This document shows, one piece after another, positions 1 through 31,619 of a DNA stretch of 64,000 nt (position 1 is its first letter; each line of letters starts with the position of its first letter). Origin of the DNA: Escherichia coli (GTDB lineage Bacteria > Pseudomonadota > Gammaproteobacteria > Enterobacterales > Enterobacteriaceae); assembly GCF_045037415.1 (NCBI RefSeq), contig NZ_CP173438.1; one strand, written 5' to 3'. The notes under the pieces were generated by a model. It made no database searches. It was not told where the DNA came from and saw nothing but the letters and a program-made list of their open reading frames with translations. A program made the position numbers and the translations under genes.

Positions 1-1535
1 ACTTTTATGAAGAACGCCCTGCGAGCGGTTGGGATATTCGTGCCGAAGCCTGGCTTCCCGCTTATCCGCAGCTTGGCGGTAAAATCGTTTTCGAACATTA
101 TTACGGGGATGAAGTTGCGCTATTTGGTACCGACAATCTAGAGAAAGATCCCTTCGCTGTCACGTTAGGCGTGAAATACCAGCCTGTTCCGCTCATTGCT
201 GTAGGAACGGACTTCAAAGCAGGAACCGGTGATAACACCGATACCACGGTCAACGCAACGCTTAACTACCAGTTTGGCGTCCCGCTCAAAGACCAGCTTG
301 ATCCTGACAAAGTGAGCGCGGCTCACTCACTCATGGGCAGCCGTCACGACTTTGTTGAACGTAACAACTTTATTGTTCTGGAATATAAAGAGAAAGATCC
401 CCTCGATGTCACTTTGTGGCTGAAAGCTGATGCGATGAATGAACATCCCGAGTGCGTGATTAAAGATACGCCAGAAGAAGCTATCGGGCTGGAAAAATGT
501 AAATGGACCATTAACGCGCTTGTCAACCACCACTACAAAATTGTCGCTGCGTCATGGCAGGCGAAAAACAATGCCGCCCGCACGCTGGTGATGCCGGTTA
601 TCAAAGAGAATACCCTGACAGAGGGCAACAATAACCACTGGAACCTGGTGCTGCCCGTCTGGCAGTACAGCTCTGACAAAGCCGAACAAGGAAAACTCAA
701 TACCTGGCGGGTTCGCCTGGCGCTGAAAGATGAAAAGGGCAACCGACAGAACTCAGGCGTGGTGGAAATCACCGTTCAGCAGGACCGTAAAATTGAGCTG
801 ATTGTTAATAACATCGCGAACGTGCCGGAAGAGAACAACCACAGCCACGAAGCCAGTGCACAGGCTGATGGTGTAGATGGTGTGGTGATGGATCTCGATA
901 TTACTGATAGCTTTGGCGACAACACTGACCGCAACGGTAATGTCTTGCCGCAGGATAATCTCAACCCGCAGCTGTTTGATGCCAACGATAAAAAAGTGAC
1001 GCTGACGAATAACCCCTGCACTACCGAGACTCCCTGTGTCTTTATCGCCAAACAAGATAAAGAAAAGGGGACCGTTACGCTCTCCAGTACGTTGCCTGGC
1101 ACCTTCCGTTGGAAGGCGAAAGCTGCCCCCTATGATGACAGTAACTATGTTGACGTAACGTTCCTGGGGGCTGACATCGGCGGGCTGAATGCCTTTATCT
1201 ATCGCGTTGGTGCGGCTAAATCCGTGAATCTTATCGGCAATAAAGAACCGTTGCCCCTCAATAGCCGATATCGCTTTGTGTTGTGGCGCGACGCTAACAA
1301 AGACGGTGTGTTCCAGCTATCTGAAAAGCTCACTGACGAAGAGATGAAACAGTATGACTACCAATGGGAATTCACGGGGCATAGCGTAAATGGCAATACT
1401 GGCGCGCAAGCCAATACCACTAACGTCGATATCGAGATCCCGGCAACGAACAAGGAAGCGGCAGCGAAGTTTAGTGCCCAGGTAACCGATGGTGTGCAAG
1501 GGTACGGTTTGCAGGTCAATTACAGCAAGACATAG
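1..1535 (+). CDS. sinH: Intimin/invasin-family inverse autotransporter (SinH-like), 3' portion; 5' end lies outside the window
   Basis: Frame is open from the window edge to the stop at 1533-1535. First residues in window (..GKIVFEHYYGDEVALFGTDNL..VGTDFKAGTGDN..) resemble the end of an intimin beta-barrel followed by passenger domains. Order sinH-sinI-ratA-xseA matches CS54-type island synteny (established knowledge). Confidence 0.6.
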   Translation, partial: FYEERPASGWDIRAEAWLPAYPQLGGKIVFEHYYGDEVALFGTDNLEKDPFAVTLGVKYQPVPLIAVGTDFKAGTGDNTDTTVNATLNYQFGVPLKDQLDPDKVSAAHSLMGSRHDFVERNNFIVLEYKEKDPLDVTLWLKADAMNEHPECVIKDTPEEAIGLEKCKWTINALVNHHYKIVAASWQAKNNAARTLVMPVIKENTLTEGNNNHWNLVLPVWQYSSDKAEQGKLNTWRVRLALKDEKGNRQNSGVVEITVQQDRKIELIVNNIANVPEENNHSHEASAQADGVDGVVMDLDITDSFGDNTDRNGNVLPQDNLNPQLFDANDKKVTLTNNPCTTETPCVFIAKQDKEKGTVTLSSTLPGTFRWKAKAAPYDDSNYVDVTFLGADIGGLNAFIYRVGAAKSVNLIGNKEPLPLNSRYRFVLWRDANKDGVFQLSEKLTDEEMKQYDYQWEFTGHSVNGNTGAQANTTNVDIEIPATNKEAAAKFSAQVTDGVQGYGLQVNYSKT

Positions 1536-1584
1536 GAACAGCGCCATGGCTGATCGGGCCACCGCTGAATGTTAACCAAGGAGA

Positions 1585-2583
1585 GTGTTTATGAAACCTC
1601 ATATGAAACGTGGCCTGACAAAAGTCGCGCTGGCACTGATGCTGGCTGGATACTGTGCCGTACCAGTCGCTATGGCGGAAGATGCTGCCTGGGTCGCCAG
1701 TGGAACGACAGCTGAATTCGAGGGGACCATACCCTGGCTCTATCGCGAAGGGGGGAATGCTACGATTAACTCGGAAGATGCGGATCACATCAAAGTGACA
1801 TCTGATAGTAAAGGTATCCGTCCTGCAGGTAGCGAGTCTGATAAACGCCTTTACTCAGGGGATACCATCACGCTGGGTTGGGATATCGGCGATACCGAAG
1901 GGGATATCGATGATGGTTCCGCAGGCATTGATGCGAAAACGACGGCGACCATCAAATGGTACAGCTACAGTGATAATGCGGGTGGCGGTAAAACGGAGTT
2001 GACTGCGGCGGCAGGAAAAACCAGTTATAAAATCACCGATGGCGATCGTGGACGCTATATCGGTGTTGAAATCCAGCCTATCACTCAGACCGGTAATCCC
2101 TTCCAGGGAACTTCGCTGACTCTGCTGGATATTTCTACGGCCAGCGGTGGCGGCAGCGATACGGATAATGTCGATCCTGGTCCGGTTGTTAACCAGAACC
2201 TGAAAGTTGCCATCTTCGAGAAAGACACCAGTACCAACCTTATCGGTGGTAATACAGCCATTGCGCTTAACAAAACGTATGTGGCCAAACTGTACTCGGA
2301 TGAAAACCAGAACGGTAAATACGACGCGGGTACGGATGTGGACGTTACCGCTAACTACGACTTTGCGTGGGTCTTTAACGGTAACAGTAAACAACTTGCG
2401 GCGGCGGGCGGTATTGCCAACGCCAGCTTCGATAACAATGACATTGTTATTCCGCAAACTAACGAACAAGCAAGAACCAGCCTTAACGGTAGTGACCGTA
2501 ATGGTAAGACCGGCCTTGCAATCCCGGCAAACGGCGACGGCGTTCAGGGCTATACGCTGTCTATCATTTACAAACACCACTAA
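1585..2583 (+). CDS. sinI: SinI-like secreted protein (332 aa) with signal peptide
   Basis: RBS aaggagag upstream; N-terminal signal peptide (MKRGLTKVALALMLAGYCAVPVAMA); C-terminal about 100 aa homologous to the C-terminus of the preceding intimin-like protein (..NGNxxxAxAN..DIxIPxTN..DGVQGYxL..Y). Confidence 0.6.
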   Translation: MFMKPHMKRGLTKVALALMLAGYCAVPVAMAEDAAWVASGTTAEFEGTIPWLYREGGNATINSEDADHIKVTSDSKGIRPAGSESDKRLYSGDTITLGWDIGDTEGDIDDGSAGIDAKTTATIKWYSYSDNAGGGKTELTAAAGKTSYKITDGDRGRYIGVEIQPITQTGNPFQGTSLTLLDISTASGGGSDTDNVDPGPVVNQNLKVAIFEKDTSTNLIGGNTAIALNKTYVAKLYSDENQNGKYDAGTDVDVTANYDFAWVFNGNSKQLAAAGGIANASFDNNDIVIPQTNEQARTSLNGSDRNGKTGLAIPANGDGVQGYTLSIIYKHH

Positions 2584-2590
2584 TGCGCAC

Positions 2591-2621
2591 AACAGCATTC
2601 CCGTATGGGAATGCTGTTTTC
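2591..2621 (+). terminator. Rho-independent terminator after sinI-like gene
   Basis: Hairpin acagcattccc-gtat-gggaatgctgt followed by TTTT. Confidence 0.6.
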
Positions 2622-2692
2622 CGCCTGTTTTGCTTAGCGACGCGTTAAGCAAAACGGGTTGACGTTTTGTTTATCATGCTGGAGTTTTCTAC

Positions 2693-5600
2693 ATGTCGGT
2701 ATGTCTGAAACCAGGAAAAATCATTGTGCTTCTGGGCATGTTGGCAGCCTTTATGCTGTCTGACTTTGCACGGGCAGAGGTGGAATGGCAGACATATCCT
2801 GGTTCTACAGGCGAGTTTAACGGTACAGTTCCTATTGCCGATAGCGCCAGCGTACCCGTTTATCAGGGAAGCGTTCAGCTTGATCCTGCTGCATCTCATG
2901 ATGTGGCGTTTTCTGCTAAACCGAATGAATTTAGCGTTGACGATGACGCTGCTAACCTGATAGTTGCTAATCCTCAGGACAGTGAAGGCGACCAGTTTTC
3001 TACACCACCTGCGCTGCGCTGGGAAAACCAGACGCCGCCGACCGTCAGTCTGGTGTGGGCGGATGCCGCCACGCCGGATACGCCGCTCAATCCACAGCCC
3101 ATCGCCAACCGCAGCTTTTGCGCGCAAGGTCTGGCCGGGCGTTCGCTGGTGGCCTGGCCACAGATTGATGCGCAGCAGACCATTCCACTGCTTTATCTGC
3201 TGACCTCGACCGGTTATCCCTATGAGGGGACGGTGGTGCTGGCTGACCAGAAAGTGACGCTGAATATCGCGCCCGCGCAGGGCGATTTAATTTCGGTGAG
3301 CGCCAGTGGTTATAACGAAACGCTCGGCGCGGCAAAAACCACCGTTGGCGGCACTATCACGCTGACCGTCACCACCAAAGATTGTCAGGGTAACGTCGCG
3401 GGTAATATTCCATTTATTATCAAGCGTAAAGATGCCCAAAACCGTCAGGGCGCGGTAAATAATACCGCGCCGGTGGTGCTGGATAGCACCGAGTTAACGA
3501 CGACGGTAACCGAGTATCGTGGCACATCGGATGCTAACGGTACGGCAACCATCACGGTGACCCAGCCTAACGGCCCCGGTGTTAAAACGCCGCTGGTAGT
3601 CGGCATTTCCGGCATTGCACAAACCAGTGAGGCGGCGGTGATCTTTACCGTGCTCACCAGCCCGGACGTGGCGCAGGCCACGATGTGGGGCCATATGGCG
3701 GAGACGGTGGAAGCCCATGGTTACACGTTCAGTAGACCAAAACTGGCGGCGGAAGTCAGTAACGAAAATGCCACGGTCGTCGATCACAATGAAACCTGGT
3801 CCACCTTTACCTGGAGCGGCGCAGATAGCCATTGCACCGTGCTGCCGGGCATGCGCCACTTCGGCGCACTGGCGACGGTGATTCCCTCCACGGTACAGAC
3901 TGTGCTCGGCTGGCCGATGCAGGGCGATTATTACTGGTCATCGCTGGCGGGGCTTACCGGGCAGCACCATGCGGCAGATGTCTCTAACCGTGGCGAAACG
4001 CAGAAGCCGGACAGCACCACGTTCCTCGTGAGCTGCGTGGATAAGCCCGCGCCTGACGTCGAGCCGAAAATCGTCCTCACGCCAGAAAACTATGATGACA
4101 CGGCGCAGGCGATGAAAGCGAAGGTGGGCGAGGATGCGACGATGCGTCTGGCCATCACCGACACGAAAAACAACGATCAACCGCTGGCGTATTACTACTT
4201 CTCGCTACATCTGGATGATGGCGTCAATCGTAAGAATCAAACCGACACTGCCTGGGAAGCCCATCCGGTACAGATTGCTGGCGGCAGTAATTTTCGCCAG
4301 GTCGACGCACATACCTATGAAGGCATGACCGACGCCAACGGCCAGGCTTCGCTCACCCTGAGCCAGCCCGGCGGCGCGGGGGTGAAAACCCATATCACGG
4401 CAAGAATGCGCAGCGATTTTAACGCCACAGATGCCAAAGATGTGATTTTTACCGTAATCACCAGCCCGGACAGCGACAAAGCGCGGATGTGGGGCCATAT
4501 GCGCGGCATTATTGAGTCCGGCAGTTTGTATAAACGCCCGTTGCTGGCGGATGAAACCGAGCATGAATTGGGAACAGTGCGGGAAAATAACGAAGACTGG
4601 GCGCTCTACGATCAAAACACCAGTATGCAGGCGGAATGCGGCGTCGGTCATATACCGCGCCAGAGCTCACTGGAAAGCCTGTTTTCAGCCCATCCCGGTA
4701 ACGCGATTGGTACTGAATATGGCTGGCCCACTGCACAACAGGGCTATTTAAGCGCGGTGGAGCAAGCCACGCATTCATCGGTGGATCTGGGGAACGGGAG
4801 CGTCGACAGCTATTCCGGCTTTAAGCCGAATTACCTCTCCTGTTCGGGTAATGAGATGGTAGCGAATGTTGAAGTCAGCACCGATCATGATGTGTCTGTT
4901 GGCACCCAAGCGCAAGCCAAAGTGGGTGACACCATTGTGATGACCGTGCGTACGATTAACTCGCTCAATAATATCCCTGTACCCTTTACTGCATTCACCA
5001 TTACCAAAGGTATGGGGTATAACCGAGCGGGGCAGGTGAGCGGGTTTGATGACCCGAGCAGTGGTGCAATCACGATGGATAACACGCAATACGGCACATC
5101 ACAGTCATCGAAGGTTTATGCGGGAATAACCGATGCCCGGGGCGTGGCGACGGTCGAGATTAAGCAACCACAGGGCGTCGGGCTAAAAACGGTGCTGAGC
5201 GTAACGCCGGTAAATTCCTACCTGCCGAATACCGTTAACTACAGCGTTATTTTTACTACCCCAACCAGCCCGGACGTTACCGGCGCGCAGATGTGGGGCC
5301 ATATGGATGAAACGATCACCGTTGATTCATCAACCTTTACCCGGCCTAAACTGGCGTCGGAAGTCGCCAGCCCGGACGGAACCCTGACCGAAAATAACGA
5401 AATCTGGGCGCGCGTGAGCCAGGCCAATACGTCCAGTACCAGTAAAGGTGGCTGCGACACCAATATGTTGCCACGTCGTTCCCAGCTAAGTGCGCTGTAT
5501 AACGCCAACAGTGGTAACGCGGTGCAAACGGCGCACGGTTGGCCAACACAGCGTCAGCCTTACTGGAGCAACTCACCGGCAGATAAAACTCCACACTTTT

Positions 5601-8600
5601 TCACGATAGCGCTGAACGATGGCGCACAAACTATTGGCGGCGATACGCCGGTTTACGTCAGTTGCCTGAAGACGGCGAACAAACCTGCCAGCAGCATTAC
5701 GCTGGAGGTGGTTGATAAAGCGCAATGGAATACCGGGAATAGCGCGGCAACGCTGAAAAAAGGCGAGACGCTACAGGTTAAAGTGACGGTAAAAGACGCA
5801 CAGGGCAACGCGTTAGCGGATATGCCATTTACCCTCAATCGCGGTGATGGCTATACCCGTAGCGGCGAAAAACATGTGGCGGGCAGCGGCGATGCGCTGG
5901 TTGCGCCGGTGGTAGTCAATGGCGGGCTGGCAGATGAAACCACGTTGAACGACACTGCAACGGTGTATACCGCCATGACCGACAATGACGGCAGCAAAAT
6001 TCTCAATATTACCCGCCCGGATACTCACGGCACCAAAACGGCGCTGACGGCAATGCTTTACTCTGATGCGACGAAAAAATCCAGCATCGACACAATCTTT
6101 ACGGTGGTGACCAGCCCGGATAGCCGCCTGGCAAAAATGTGGGGACATATGCCGGAAACGGTGACTGCTGCGGACGGTACGGTATTTAAGCGCCCGCTGT
6201 TGTTGAAGGAACTGGCCTATCAGACTGGGCGAACATCAACGTCTGAAGACAATGAAAACTGGGCGTTGTTTAACATTAATTATGCAAGTTTTTCCACGAC
6301 GTACAGCGGCTGTGGAACCAACTATATTCCGACTCAGGCCGGTCTGACGTCACTGTTTGCTAATAATGCGGGCAACACCATGAAAACCGTGCAGGGCTGG
6401 CCGGTGGCAACGCGCTATTTATCCAACACTTCCGACAACGGCAGCATGGAGCAGCGTAACTACAAGGCGGTAGATCTCAGCAATGGCACGAGTGCGGCAG
6501 TGTCATCAACGACGCTGGAGCTGCTGACCTGCCAGACCGCGCCGATAGCCGCGGTGAGCCAAATCCTGCTGGAAGCGGCAGATCCGGTGACGCTGGATAC
6601 CACCTATAACGTGGTAAAAGCGAAAAAAAGCGAAGAATCCGTGGTGCGCGTCATCACCAAAGATGCGCAAGGCAACCTTGTGGGCAATACGGCATTTATC
6701 CTGACGCGAGCCAACAGTGTAAGTCGGGCTAATTCATCGGCGACGATGAGTGTGGGCGCGCTGACGGTGACGGATGCGTGGGGAAATACGCGAAATAATT
6801 TCCAGTCAACGAGTGAAACCATTTACGGCGTGACCGGTGCCGACGGGTCAACGACATTTACCCTAAAACAGGATAACAGTACCGGGTTAAGAACCGATCT
6901 CACGGCAAAACTGGATACGTCCAGCAGCGTCAAGGCGATGCTACCGGTGGTCTTTACCGTCGTGACCAGCCCGGATTCGCCAAAAGCGAATTTTTGGGGA
7001 CATATGGCCGAAACGGTGACGGCCTCCGATGGTTCGGTTTATAAGCGACCGTTGCTGTTTGGCGAGCTTACCAACAACTATGCACGATATAGCACGTTTG
7101 AGAACGGTGAAAGTTGGGCAAGATTCACCTCGACTCAGTCGGCTGACACCAGCATGAATGGGTGTGGTACAGATTATATGCCAACGCTGGATGGTCTGAA
7201 GTCTTTGTATGACGCCAATAGAGGTAATGCGATGAATACGGTACAGGGATGGCCGGTAAATATGAGTTATCTCACCAATACCCCGAGTAATACACAAACA
7301 GGGAGCCGTTACTACAATGTGGTGCAACTAAATTCTGGCGCAGTTTCGCAAATCGTATCCACCGTGCTGGCGTTACAAACCTGCCGTACAACGCCGTTGA
7401 TGACTGCCAGCCAGATTACGCTGGAAGCCTCAGACCCCGGGCAGTTTGTCAGCATTGACAGCACACTTAGCGCCGTCAAAGCGAAGAAGGGGGATGAGGT
7501 GTCGATCCGCATTTCGACTAAAGATGCGCAGGGGAATTTAGTCGGCAATACGCCGTTTGCCCTGAAACACGCGAACTCGATCAATCGTCAGAATGTGACG
7601 TCATCGCAGAAAGTGTCAGTCACGACTGCGGCGGGTGCGACGGTGGATACCAGTGCAACGACCATCCTGTATGGTGTAACAGGGCCAGATGGAACCACTA
7701 CGATGACGCTCCGACAGGATGCTTCCACTGGGTTAAGAACCGACTTTTATGCTCTATTAAACGATACTGGCGTGTCGTCGGACACCTTGTCGGTGATCTT
7801 TACCGTCACCACCAGCCCGGATACGCCGCTGGCGACCAATTGGGGCCATATGGCGGAAACCTTTACCAGCAGCGAAGGCGTCACCTTCAAACGGCCTTTC
7901 CTCAAAGCCGAACTCTCTGGCGGTACGGCGAAAACGGCCAATAATGAAGTCTGGTCGCTCCTGACCGCGACTGAGAAAGCGGACGTCAGCAAGGCTGGGT
8001 GTGATGAGGCGTATCAACCGCTGACGACTGATATGCAGGGGCTGTATGTCGATTATCCCAATGGTCAACTGGCAACGGTGCTCGGCTTGCCGACTGCTGC
8101 AGGGAACTGGTGGGATTATGACATGATGGCGGTAGCGGGCGGTAGCTGGAGTAACCAGGCGTTTGTTCCGGGAAATGGTCAGTTGATTCAGGCATCGTCC
8201 AGCTATACGGCGATAGTGATGTGTTTGGTAGAGCCTCATACGGAAGCAGTCACAATAGAGCTTACCTCAACGGCGCAGGATGCAGCAAAATCGCTCAGCA
8301 ATGATGGACGACCGAGCGCTGTAGCGAAGAAAGGTGAGCTGATTCCGTTGACGGTGACCGTGCGTGATAGCGCCGGGAACCCGATGCCATATGCCGACTT
8401 TACCCTTTCGCGTGAAACGACGCTGGATCGCGCGAAAGCAACCGTTAACACGAGTGCAGACGATCTTACCGTAACGGCATTGGTTCCGGTGAGTAGGGAT
8501 AGCGTGTTGACAGCAAGTGGAGCAAAAACTCTCGCAACGACGGGCAGTGATGGCACAGCCACCTTTGAGGTTGGGCAGTACTCTACTACCGGGTTGGCGA

Positions 8601-10774
8601 CGCCGTTAACCGTGACGCTGGCGCGTGATACAACGAAAGTCGCCACGCTGGATGTTATCTACACGGTGATTACCAGCCCAGATTCACCGAGTGCTAAATT
8701 CTGGGGGCATATGCCGGACACCTTTACCAGTTCGGCGGGCGTCACCTTCAAACGACCCCTGCTGAAAACCGAAACCAGCTCAGGCTTATCGATTAGTTCT
8801 AACGGCGAAGTTTGGTCGTATATGAGCAACTTGCAAAATTTAACATCTACAGATTGCCCACTCGAGAATCAACCGCGCAGTAAGGAACTGTTGGATTTGT
8901 ATAGTGATCATCCGAACGGCGCAATAATGACTGACCTTGGGTTACCGATGAATGCGGGTAACTGGTGGGCTTATGATATGGCCATACTGGGTACAACAAC
9001 GTGGTCTTATCAGACTGTCAGCCTGAGAACAGGAGCTATCGCGAAGAATTCTGCAACCAACGCACTGATGCTCTGTCTGGCGCAGCCGCATCCGGCAGGC
9101 GTTAGCGTAACATTGACGTCATCCGCACTGGATGACGCCAGAACCCTCAGCAATGGCGGCCGACCTAGCGCGTCAGTGAAAAAAGATAACCCATTGCCAA
9201 TTGTGGTTATGGTCAAAGATCGTGATGGCAACCCGCTGGCGGGCGAAGCGATAACGCTCAGGCGTGATAATGCGATGAGCCGCTCAGGAACCATTGTAAA
9301 CACGGCAGCAAATGTGATGGTATTGACGGAACTGGCACCCGTGTCGGCAACATTCACTCTCGCCTCACACGGCACGCAATGGCTTGGTTTTACCGGCAGC
9401 GATGGTACGGCGATATTCAATGTTGAACAGCCTGATACTGTCGGCCTGGCAACACCGTTTACCGCCATCCTGGCACGTGATACGGAAACCACCACTGTCC
9501 TTGATGCGATCTTCACCGTTGTCACCAGCCCTGATTCCGCAATGGCGGCCTACTGGGGTCATATGCCGGATACGGTAACGGCAGAAAACGGTGTGGTCTT
9601 TGAAAGACCTAAATTGTGGAAAGAGCTGCCGTCGACATCAGGGGTTAGCAAGGTCAATAGTAACAATGAAGTCTGGCCCGTGTTTAACGCAACGCAGAGG
9701 GCTGACAGCAATCTCAGCCCTTGTGAAGCGGCACGTCGGCCATTGAGTGATGATTTAGAATCGCTCTATGCTCGCTATCCGGGGAACACGCTGACGACAC
9801 AAATCGGTTGGTCTACGCAGTATACATGGTGGGCGCTGGATAACTGGCTGGGAGGCAGTAATCCGCAGGTAGTCGGTCTGAATAATGGTTCAGCGTGGGG
9901 GACGGTGAATACCGCGTATCAAGGGTGCCTGGTTAACCCGCGTGCGACTGTCTCCAGCGTCACGTTGACATCGACGGCACTGGATAGCAGTACGCAGGCG
10001 GCGAAGGTGAAAAAAGGCGACGCCGTTCCCGTTGTCGTTACCGTGAAAGACAGTGTCGGGAAACCAGTGCCGAATATTTCGTTTATCCTCAAACGTGGTG
10101 ACGCTACGCCGCGTAATAGCGGGGCGACGTTGTATGGCGATGTGGATACAATGGACGATTTGACTGTACAACCCTCATCCGGTGCGGCAGTCACGTTGGC
10201 TGATAGCGGGAATACAATCGATGGAGTTACTGGAGCAGACGGTACAGCAAGTTTTACCGTTGGTCAGGATAATACGCCAGGATATAAAACGCCGTTGACG
10301 GTGACGCTGACGGATAACGCCACAATAACGGCGACGCTGGACACGATTTTCACCGTGCCGACCAGTCCTAATGTCGCCACGGCGTATTTCTGGGGTCATA
10401 TGGCGGATACCGCCACGGTAAGTGGCAAGATGCTGCATCGCCCGCTATTAAAATCGGAGTTGCCGTCAGGGGTTACCGCAGCAGCAACGCCCAATGTGAA
10501 TAATGAAACCTGGGCGCTGGCACATGTTATAGATTCCACTAAATGGGATGTCGCACGGCAGTGCGGTAGTATGAATAACGTGCCGAGCAGTGCCGAATTA
10601 CAAACATTACACTCCGGCTTTAGCACATTGGGATGGCCGTCATCGATAAGCTTCCCGTATTTATCTACTGATAAGGCTGGATCGTTCTATTGTGGTGTTG
10701 AGGAAGGCTCTGGCAGTCTCAACTGTGGCATTCAGCCTGCGAAAACGCCGGGGTTTGCAACCTGTTTCCAATAA
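2693..10774 (+). CDS. ratA: Giant repetitive Ig-like-domain surface protein (2693 aa), RatA-like
   Basis: Signal peptide at N-terminus; about nine tandem repeats of roughly 280 aa, each ending in a conserved FTVxTSPD..A..WGHM(A/P)(E/D)T motif; adjacent to xseA as in CS54-type islands. Confidence 0.65.
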
Positions 10775-31219: not shown

Positions 31220-31296
31220 CTGGCGTGGCATGCAGGATTCGAACCTGCGACCAACCGCTTAGAAGGCGGTTGCTCTGTCCAACTGAGCTAATGCCA
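31220..31296 (-). tRNA. tRNA-Arg (anticodon UCU), phage-encoded
   Basis: Folded by hand: acceptor GTGGCAT/ATGCCAC, D-arm GCTC..GAGC, anticodon stem ACCGC/GCGGT with loop CTTCTAA (anticodon TCT), T-arm GCAGG-TTCGAAT-CCTGC, discriminator G and encoded CCA. Confidence 0.85.
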
Positions 31297-31619
31297 CAAC
31301 GCTGAGAGCACTTAGCCTGTTAAGGCGCCACACTTTGTCGCGGCTCCATAAATGCTCTCATCGTTGTACCCTCGTCTCTTCCGAGGCGTCACACCGAATC
31401 GCCGGGATGGTGAATCCCCGTGCGCGGAATAAAACCGCTCGACTTGCACATTCCGGCTACCTGGTTCGTTTGCCCGAGCAAGGGAGGGTGCCCCTTAAAC
31501 GTATCCAGACCGCTATCGGCGCATGTGCCATACGCCGTACTGCTCAAAATAAAAGCTCACTCCACCTGTTCAATTTAACGACAATCCAGTCAGGTTAGTA
31601 ACCGGAATGAACTCTTTGG

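Follow-up and report, generated by a model that had tools for sequence, protein, structure and literature searches.

The closest described relatives of the genes studied here, the sinH-sinI-ratA group that opens a 64-kb window of an Escherichia coli chromosome (contig NZ_CP173438.1; the window is the whole stretch that was analysed), belong to the Salmonella CS54 island, where sinH (sivH), sinI (sivI) and ratA are the same genes, in the same order and in the same chromosomal neighbourhood (der/yfgK ... xseA). The other system that compares with them is ZirT-ZirS-ZirU: as in our locus, an inverse autotransporter is followed by Sec-dependent proteins that lack a barrel and resemble the immunoglobulin-like (Ig-like) passenger domains of the autotransporter; the secretion of ZirS requires ZirT (PMC2270342). 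The analogy with Zir has also been drawn for IatB, which is the SinH of E. coli (Goh et al., PMC6714894), and SinI and Rat-like proteins have been proposed as substrates of SinH-type autotransporters (Heinz et al., PMC4943183). Moreover, the similarity between SinI and SinH was reported in Salmonella (Kingsley 2003, as cited in Heinz 2016, PMC4943183) and, for IatB and its downstream protein, in E. coli (Goh 2019, PMC6714894), and the family is curated in NCBIfam (NF040711), so that the sharing of a domain by SinH and SinI is already known. The sharing noticed by the original prediction, which was read from the sequence of this window, is a documented feature of a named family and changes little. 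Less expected is that the other half of SinI appears to resemble the start of the neighbouring giant adhesin.

The window opens inside sinH and continues with sinI and a RatA-like gene. Only the 3' part of sinH (iatB) is present, as an open reading frame (ORF) of 510 codons (3-1535, + strand) whose 5' part is cut off by the window start; it encodes residues 215-724 of an intimin-like inverse autotransporter of 724 aa, the full gene being seen in a related locus (L001). With only 510 of the 724 residues in the window, the fragment nevertheless passes the cut-off of the SinH equivalog NCBIfam NF033423 (1020.2 bits against 999, model positions 221-729 of 730), and it is 100% identical to the annotated SinH of E. 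coli SK1144 and others. After a gap of 55 nt, sinI (1591-2583, + strand, 330 codons, ATG at 1591) encodes a protein annotated in RefSeq as "SinI family autotransporter-associated protein", which matches NF040711 over its full length (376.3 bits, cut-off 165, model positions 1-299 of 299). The original prediction had called the upstream protein intimin-like and the small one SinI-like, and both names hold. The third ORF (2693-10774, + strand, 2693 codons) encodes a RatA-like giant adhesin with nine BIg21 and nine InvE_AD repeats (PF05688, PF05689), which matches the 2683-aa "RatA-like" model PRK15316 end to end (5335 bits) and possesses a Sec signal peptide and no beta-barrel.

Many complete E. 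coli chromosomes contain the DNA of positions 1-2700 with 100% identity; there these genes are annotated as sinH, SinI family and "adhesion domain-containing protein" and are preceded by hisS-yfgM-bamB-der; on the 3' side of the ratA-like gene, the window carries xseA, guaB and guaA. The locus is thus an adhesin island of extraintestinal pathogenic E. coli (ExPEC), sinH-sinI-ratA, lying between der and xseA, and the gene identities given by annotation and curated models make it the equivalent in E. coli of the portion of the Salmonella CS54 island that holds sinH, sinI and ratA. Differences exist between both: the SinI of the window is 41-45% identical to the Salmonella-type SinI, has an N-terminal motif of the AEF type instead of the NLKSGQWQ type and an insertion of 7-12 residues that precedes DGVQGY, and the adhesin is of the 2683-aa PRK15316 type, not LT2 RatA or RatB. 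We fetched 20 related loci (Escherichia, Citrobacter, Pseudocitrobacter, Superficieibacter, Leminorella). In every enterobacterial locus long enough to show it the order is sinH - sinI - ratA-like on one strand, and sinI lies directly 3' of a SinH-type autotransporter gene in every related locus that keeps the upstream gene. The same order of autotransporter, SinI and adhesin is found in Budvicia, Yersinia and a metagenomic locus (L022), and intact ORFs with a fixed synteny are maintained across at least 8 genera.

The ends of SinH and SinI align, as the original prediction had claimed for their last ~100 residues. BLASTP pairs residues 407-507 of the SinH fragment with residues 214-327 of SinI (32% identity over 116 columns, E 1e-10). 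With a score of 127, the Smith-Waterman alignment stands far above the shuffled controls that had been named as the check, whether the whole SinI is shuffled (39.9 +/- 5.8, z 15.1) or only the C-terminal parts are compared (30.5 +/- 6.0, z 16.0), and the reversed sequence scores 37. Each family model recognizes the other protein: that of SinI matches SinH 404-507 (E 2.5e-23), and that of SinH matches SinI 210-329 (E 2.3e-11). Finally hhalign, fed with 39 SinI and 22 SinH sequences, gives a probability of 99.2% (E 3.3e-19, 111 columns), pairing SinI 203-330 with residues 394-510 of the SinH fragment (608-724 of the full-length protein) and with no other region. Nineteen columns are invariant in the alignment of 6 SinH and 12 SinI C-terminal modules, hereafter C-modules. 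Altogether, these alignments show that the two C-modules are homologous by common descent. The homology extends over ~117 aa in SinH and ~128 aa in SinI, and so reaches about 15-25 residues further towards the N-terminus than proposed; in the motif written down at that time, the part from "D(I)(V)IP.TN" to "GVQGY.L..Y" is correct, and the register of "NGN.G" and "(T/S)D(R/G)" was slightly wrong.

On the DNA, the C-module occupies 1182-1532 (+) in sinH, as delimited by hhalign, BLASTP and the match of the SinI model, and 2197-2580 (+) in sinI. Its distribution is narrow. Searched against 1.84 billion representative proteins, the C-module profile returned only 61 matches at E <= 1e-3. Those of full length are proteins of the size of SinI or SinH with the module at their C-terminus; the remaining ones are short fragments or very large surface proteins matching one stretch. 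The matches of the C-module hidden Markov model (HMM) are likewise proteins of autotransporter or SinI size, along with three fragments of such proteins, two at contig ends and one from a frameshift. In these searches the C-module is confined to the autotransporter and to SinI-family proteins. No Pfam family exceeded its gathering threshold in a scan of all 18 C-modules; below the threshold we found DUF5057 (9 of the 18, best E 1.3e-4), GEVED and Flg_new_2. A D-x-N-x-D-G loop resembling an EF-hand, DANKDGVFQLSE (1290-1325, + strand) inside the SinH C-module, is a predicted Ca2+ site, whose counterpart in the Salmonella-type SinI is DKNGNGTYDTGE. The strict pattern D-x-[DN]-x-[DN]-G-x-hydrophobic-x3-[ED] fits 18 of the 21 SinH and 7 of the 21 SinI C-modules; taken alone, the loop stretch partially matches SpaA/SdrD_B-type proteins, with no match at the level of the family. 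The conservation of this loop suggests that the shared module might bind calcium.

In SinH the C-module is the third Ig-like domain. The fragment begins with the end of the beta-barrel and linker (3-389, + strand, fragment residues 1-129; Pfam IAT_beta E 3e-47, profile positions 159-279 of 279), which compares with invasin (4e1t, E 2e-38) and intimin (4e1s, E 6e-38). It continues with the passenger Ig-like domains 1 and 2 (390-1181, + strand, fragment residues 130-393), named after Xing 2023 (PMC9937491), which are unlike SinI, and ends with the C-module. SinH is thus a type Ve (inverse) autotransporter with Ig-like domain 3 as its outermost passenger domain; residues 602-724, or SinH-3, were described as a "receptor-binding domain" and a protective vaccine antigen (Xing, PMC9937491). 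Intimin and invasin share with SinH the homologous barrel and a passenger made of Ig-like domains. They carry, however, a C-type lectin-like domain (CTLD) as a tip on the same polypeptide, whereas SinH ends in an Ig-like module common to SinI, and related loci carry an invasin-D4-type tip on a separate downstream protein. We considered the shared C-module as such a CTLD tip and rejected this assignment.

The original prediction considered SinI as a duplicated C-terminal module of the adhesin provided with its own signal peptide. This is correct for residues 203-330 (39% of the protein) and for the signal peptide, which is of a typical Sec type as read from the sequence. It does not account for residues 30-182, which form a separate module unlike SinH: the N-terminal part of SinI has no similarity to the rest of SinH, domains 1 and 2 included (z -0.1, and none by hhalign either). 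Nor is the copy a recent and local one. In a tree of C-modules, 20 SinH modules form one clade, and 21 SinI modules together with one distant metagenomic autotransporter module form the other; among the enterobacterial loci, the two types of module show reciprocal monophyly. SinH and SinI of the same locus are 37.4% identical, against 36.6% across loci; by permutation this difference is reached in 194 of 10000 draws, a result driven by the distant locus L022. That sinH and sinI were duplicated recently, or undergo gene conversion, is rejected by the separate clades and by a same-locus identity that is not meaningfully higher. The duplication is ancient and the paralogues are not being homogenised. 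Between the loci L007-L021 and the window, SinI is 40-45% identical, the RatA-like protein 40-55% and SinH 62-86%; E. coli carries several deeply divergent classes of sinI and ratA alleles beside a fairly conserved sinH.

SinI is a predicted Sec-exported protein without barrel, in which a Gly/Asp-rich linker connects two beta-sandwich modules. We counted 155 homologues, all in Enterobacterales. The signal peptide (1591-1677, + strand, residues 1-29) reads MKPHMKRGLTK, a hydrophobic stretch and AMA, after which cleavage is predicted, then ED. It is unusually conserved among 39 sequences, around a core "LALxLAGYC", with invariant or near-invariant columns at L9, T10, A13, L14, A15, L16, A19, G20, Y21, C22, P25 and A29; the core "LALALAGY" is common to E. 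coli, Yersinia and Budvicia, where the identity over the whole protein is 25-30%. The Cys of the signal peptide is invariant in the enterobacterial group of SinI and missing from distant members of the family. The reading of "AGYC" as a lipoprotein signal was rejected on this absence and on the Tyr at -1, unfit for a lipobox. The N-terminal module, hereafter N-module (1678-2136, + strand, residues 30-182), is a beta-sandwich with conserved GTxP, GDTEGDxD and TxTGxP landmarks and a sub-threshold resemblance to SCAB-Ig / AIR9-A9 domains. The linker TASGGGSDTDNVDPGPVVNQ follows (2137-2196, + strand), with a predicted local distance difference test score (pLDDT) below 50 at residues 186-189 in the AlphaFold2 (AF2) model, and then the C-module, a beta-sandwich with one helix modelled at a pLDDT of about 90. 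A Pfam scan of SinI found neither IAT_beta nor another barrel, and a sequence search of the PDB with SinI found no related chain at E <= 1.

The linker is a recurrent truncation site in other E. coli alleles of sinI: many of them stop at or just after the boundary between the modules (P0014, P0016, P0018, P0035, P0043, P0007, P0009, P0011). The same end, "...PGPVVN", is found in two divergent allele groups; there the next codon, CAG, is one transition away from TAG. In others the reading frame shifts, either within PGPVV or in the C-module itself. In the allele group of 65% identity, truncated clusters have more members than the intact ones. Besides, some public records give the name "ornithine carbamoyltransferase" to members of the SinI family from Budvicia, Chania, Serratia and Yersinia (P0229, P0231, P0237, P0244, P0250, P0261, P0276, P0284), which is evidently a propagated annotation error.

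The resemblance between SinI and the adhesin starts at the first residues of the mature proteins. The motif that follows the signal peptide of SinI is EDAAWVASGTTAEFEGTIPW in the window (1678-1737, + strand) and NGNLKSGQWQIVSDSTGTIQGTVPW in the Salmonella/Citrobacter-type alleles; RatA-like proteins have the same motif at the same place, behind their own signal peptide (2777-2833, + strand, in the window protein; ALKSGTWQEVNTSTDAINGTVP outside this window). An HMM of this 24-residue SinI motif, run on the window and the loci translated in six frames (3182 ORFs), detected only SinI and RatA-like proteins down to an E of about 0.02; the RatA-like matches always lie just behind signal peptides, with E from 3e-7 to 0.02 (4.6e-5 for the protein of the window). 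By hhalign the SinI and RatA-like motifs match with E 9e-5, and the C-module profile, used as a negative control, gives 0.56 against the N-terminus of RatA. Beyond the motif, the N-terminal beta domain of the RatA-like protein (2777-3292, + strand) is a possible remote homologue of the whole N-module: the comparison is marginal for the protein of the window (HMM E 0.95; hhalign probability 53%), and a comparison of folds found two generic beta-sandwiches with no common specific match.

In distant loci the third component is a small protein with an invasin-D4-type tip (Yersinia, Budvicia and the metagenomic locus), in place of the RatA-like giant of the E. coli locus. In the metagenomic locus L022, the end of the autotransporter is 48% identical to the C-module of the SinI-like protein (E 2e-29), and the N-module of the latter, p290, is 33% identical over 144 aa to the N-terminus of the third protein, p367 (BLASTP, E 1e-19); p367 also matches the N-module HMM (E 1e-28) and the SinI of the window (E 5e-16). 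The Yersinia protein p374 matches this HMM with E 0.014 at the first pass and 7e-25 after iteration with p374 itself in the profile, and Budvicia p404 matches the iterated profile, p404 included, with E 5e-22. Run against 3471 ORFs at E <= 1, the N-module HMM built on SinI sequences alone detected exclusively SinI proteins and the N-termini of downstream adhesins, and likewise after one iteration. An alignment search with the N-module returned only SinI-family proteins and one Shigella fusion fragment, no adhesins, which is probably due to the word-index limit of this search. The N-module thus seems confined to SinI-family proteins and to the N-termini of the downstream adhesins; its sharing looks clear in the distant loci, and weak but specific for the RatA of E. 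coli. The Rat N-terminal region has been described solely as "highly divergent" (Heinz et al., PMC4943183). We did not find in the papers that we read the sharing of this motif and module by SinI and the downstream adhesins, nor the complementary distribution of the two modules, which would be a modest extension of what was known. A co-evolution of the motifs of SinI and RatA was also considered and rejected: the overall permutation is striking (3/10000), but collapses to one split between type A and type B.

In some proteins the parts of the locus appear fused by deletion. P0293, a protein of 170 aa from Shigella flexneri, has the N-part of SinI in frame with the last RatA repeat, and in P0160, P0161 and P0163 the autotransporter barrel lies directly on RatA-type BIg21/InvE_AD domains.

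One module is common to the autotransporter and SinI, the other to SinI and the adhesin. This distribution suggests that SinI is a partner or an adaptor in a multiprotein adhesin of the ZirTSU kind. On balance we lean, from the sequence data, towards a single island where SinH, SinI and the RatA-like adhesin would work as one Ig-type multiprotein adhesin, like ZirT-ZirS-ZirU, with SinI as a two-handed partner. SinI would enter the periplasm via Sec, and SinH would be needed for its release or its retention at the surface; the C-module would relate SinI to the tip of SinH, and the N-module would be a handle also carried by the RatA-like adhesin. If SinI and RatA have the same handle, a single step would recognise both, and SinI may form a bridge between RatA and SinH. 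Contacts of like with like and contacts between C-module and N-module are indistinguishable from sequence. The dependence of the partner on the autotransporter for its secretion is a feature taken from Zir (PMC2270342). A giant repeat adhesin is an addition of the SinH system, and the papers that we read do not describe the C-module/N-module pattern for Zir. Several observations weigh against this proposal. IatB promotes biofilm without the downstream protein (PMC6714894), so SinH is not strictly dependent on SinI; the frequent truncation of sinI at the module boundary makes the C-module dispensable in those lineages; two RNA hairpins between sinI and ratA, described below, mean that the three genes are possibly not one transcript. 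Within each type, permutations of the motifs give no signal (4794/10000 and 1043/10000), and in the papers that we read we found no experiment on the secretion, location or binding of SinI.

Other readings of the same pattern have to be weighed. In the published hypothesis (PMC4943183) SinI is a secreted substrate of SinH, a passenger in trans like ZirS, which bridges nothing. Its N-module would then be a secretion or recognition domain, with the role that such a domain plays in two-partner secretion (TPS), and its C-module would act alone after release, for instance by binding the ligand of SinH domain 3. ZirS is a precedent, and the N-module stands in SinI and in the adhesins directly behind the signal peptide, as a targeting element would. 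We hold this reading to be possible but rather unlikely: it leaves unexplained why the C-module is restricted to the autotransporter and SinI, and the lumen of an inverse autotransporter barrel is filled by the linker, a problem raised by Heinz et al. (PMC4943183). Classical TPS (TpsA/TpsB) does not apply here, since the transporter is an IAT barrel and no TPS or Omp85/POTRA Pfam match was found in SinI, SinH or the RatA-like protein. SinI might also be a soluble decoy or competitor: once released, this copy of the domain at the SinH tip would keep the host receptor blocked or soak up antibodies against domain 3. The shared module is indeed the receptor-binding domain and protective antigen of Xing et al. 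(PMC9937491), and SinI diverges much faster than SinH (40-45% against 62-86% identity), as expected of an immune-exposed protein. At only 32-39% identity to SinH domain 3, however, antigenic mimicry is unlikely, the paralogues were already separate before the genera diverged, and the N-module and the link to RatA are left unexplained, so that we consider a decoy improbable.

A role of SinI as a periplasmic chaperone or assembly factor with an Ig fold, serving the SinH passenger and/or RatA and never leaving the cell, would fit its two tandem Ig-like modules behind a Sec signal, like PapD-type chaperones, and the fact that periplasmic proteins of the Ig superfamily are often chaperones (Heinz et al., PMC4943183); to us it is a quite improbable one. 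Chance, compositional bias or a leftover, without function, of a duplication that took place recently at this locus could be invoked from the high content of G, N, D and T in both proteins and from the pseudogenes among the sinI alleles, but the z of 15-16, the reversed control at 37, the 99.2% of hhalign and the 19 invariant columns, as well as the intact ORFs and fixed synteny in at least 8 genera, leave this explanation practically no room. At the opposite end, the two-handed partner could be taken further, into a head-to-tail assembly at the surface: the C-module would be a docking site, the N-module a docking handle, and SinI the adaptor that tethers an anchorless giant adhesin to the autotransporter stalk. 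This more ambitious version is speculative, and we would not expect it to be true. If it were, it would account for the arrival and the retention at the surface of RatA and RatB, which lack a barrel and have no known secretion system; with its two SinI paralogues, a locus like that of Budvicia would build longer chains, and a pilus-like logic of assembly would exist within type V secretion. It recalls the adaptors of chaperone-usher pili (PapF/PapK), where one component has the "acceptor" element alone, a middle one has both elements and the distal adhesin has just the other, as the C- and N-modules are distributed here. This is a functional analogy only: sequence and fold are unrelated, usher and chaperone are lacking, and nothing points to strand exchange.

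The expression signals of the locus can be partly read from the DNA. A Shine-Dalgarno sequence, AAGGAG (1578-1583, + strand), lies 7 nt 5' of the ATG of sinI, and co-transcription of sinH with sinI has been reported (PMC12525524). Between sinI and the ratA-like gene, two strong RNA hairpins occupy 2591-2618, followed by UUUU, and 2620-2662 (+ strand). Their stems, of 12 bp and of 17+2 bp, are perfect or near-perfect, and the minimum free energy of the region is -50.1 kcal/mol against -30.2 +/- 3.5 in shuffles (z -5.7); they remain below the criterion of a simple terminator scan (5 T). These hairpins may be a terminator or an element stabilising the mRNA, dividing the sinH-sinI transcript from ratA. 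Further in the window, a prophage of ~40 kb (~15500-55500) sits between guaA and yfgI and is missing from strain SK1144; its left 24.5 kb are ~97% identical to the podophages vB_EcoP_PAS61, phiv142-3 and TL-2011b, and it carries a tRNA-Arg(tct) at 31221-31297 (- strand). In another strain, E. coli AH21C062 (NZ_CP196276.1), sinH is interrupted by ISEc52, of the IS3 family.

The module shared by SinH and SinI is SinH-3, which is under test as a vaccine antigen against ExPEC; the diverged copy carried by SinI is therefore worth checking for cross-reaction or interference. As for RatA- and RatB-type giant adhesins, which have neither an anchor nor a dedicated secretion system, the complementary pattern of the two modules could make testable the way they arrive at the surface, and it offers a testable adaptor hypothesis for the display of RatA-type adhesins.

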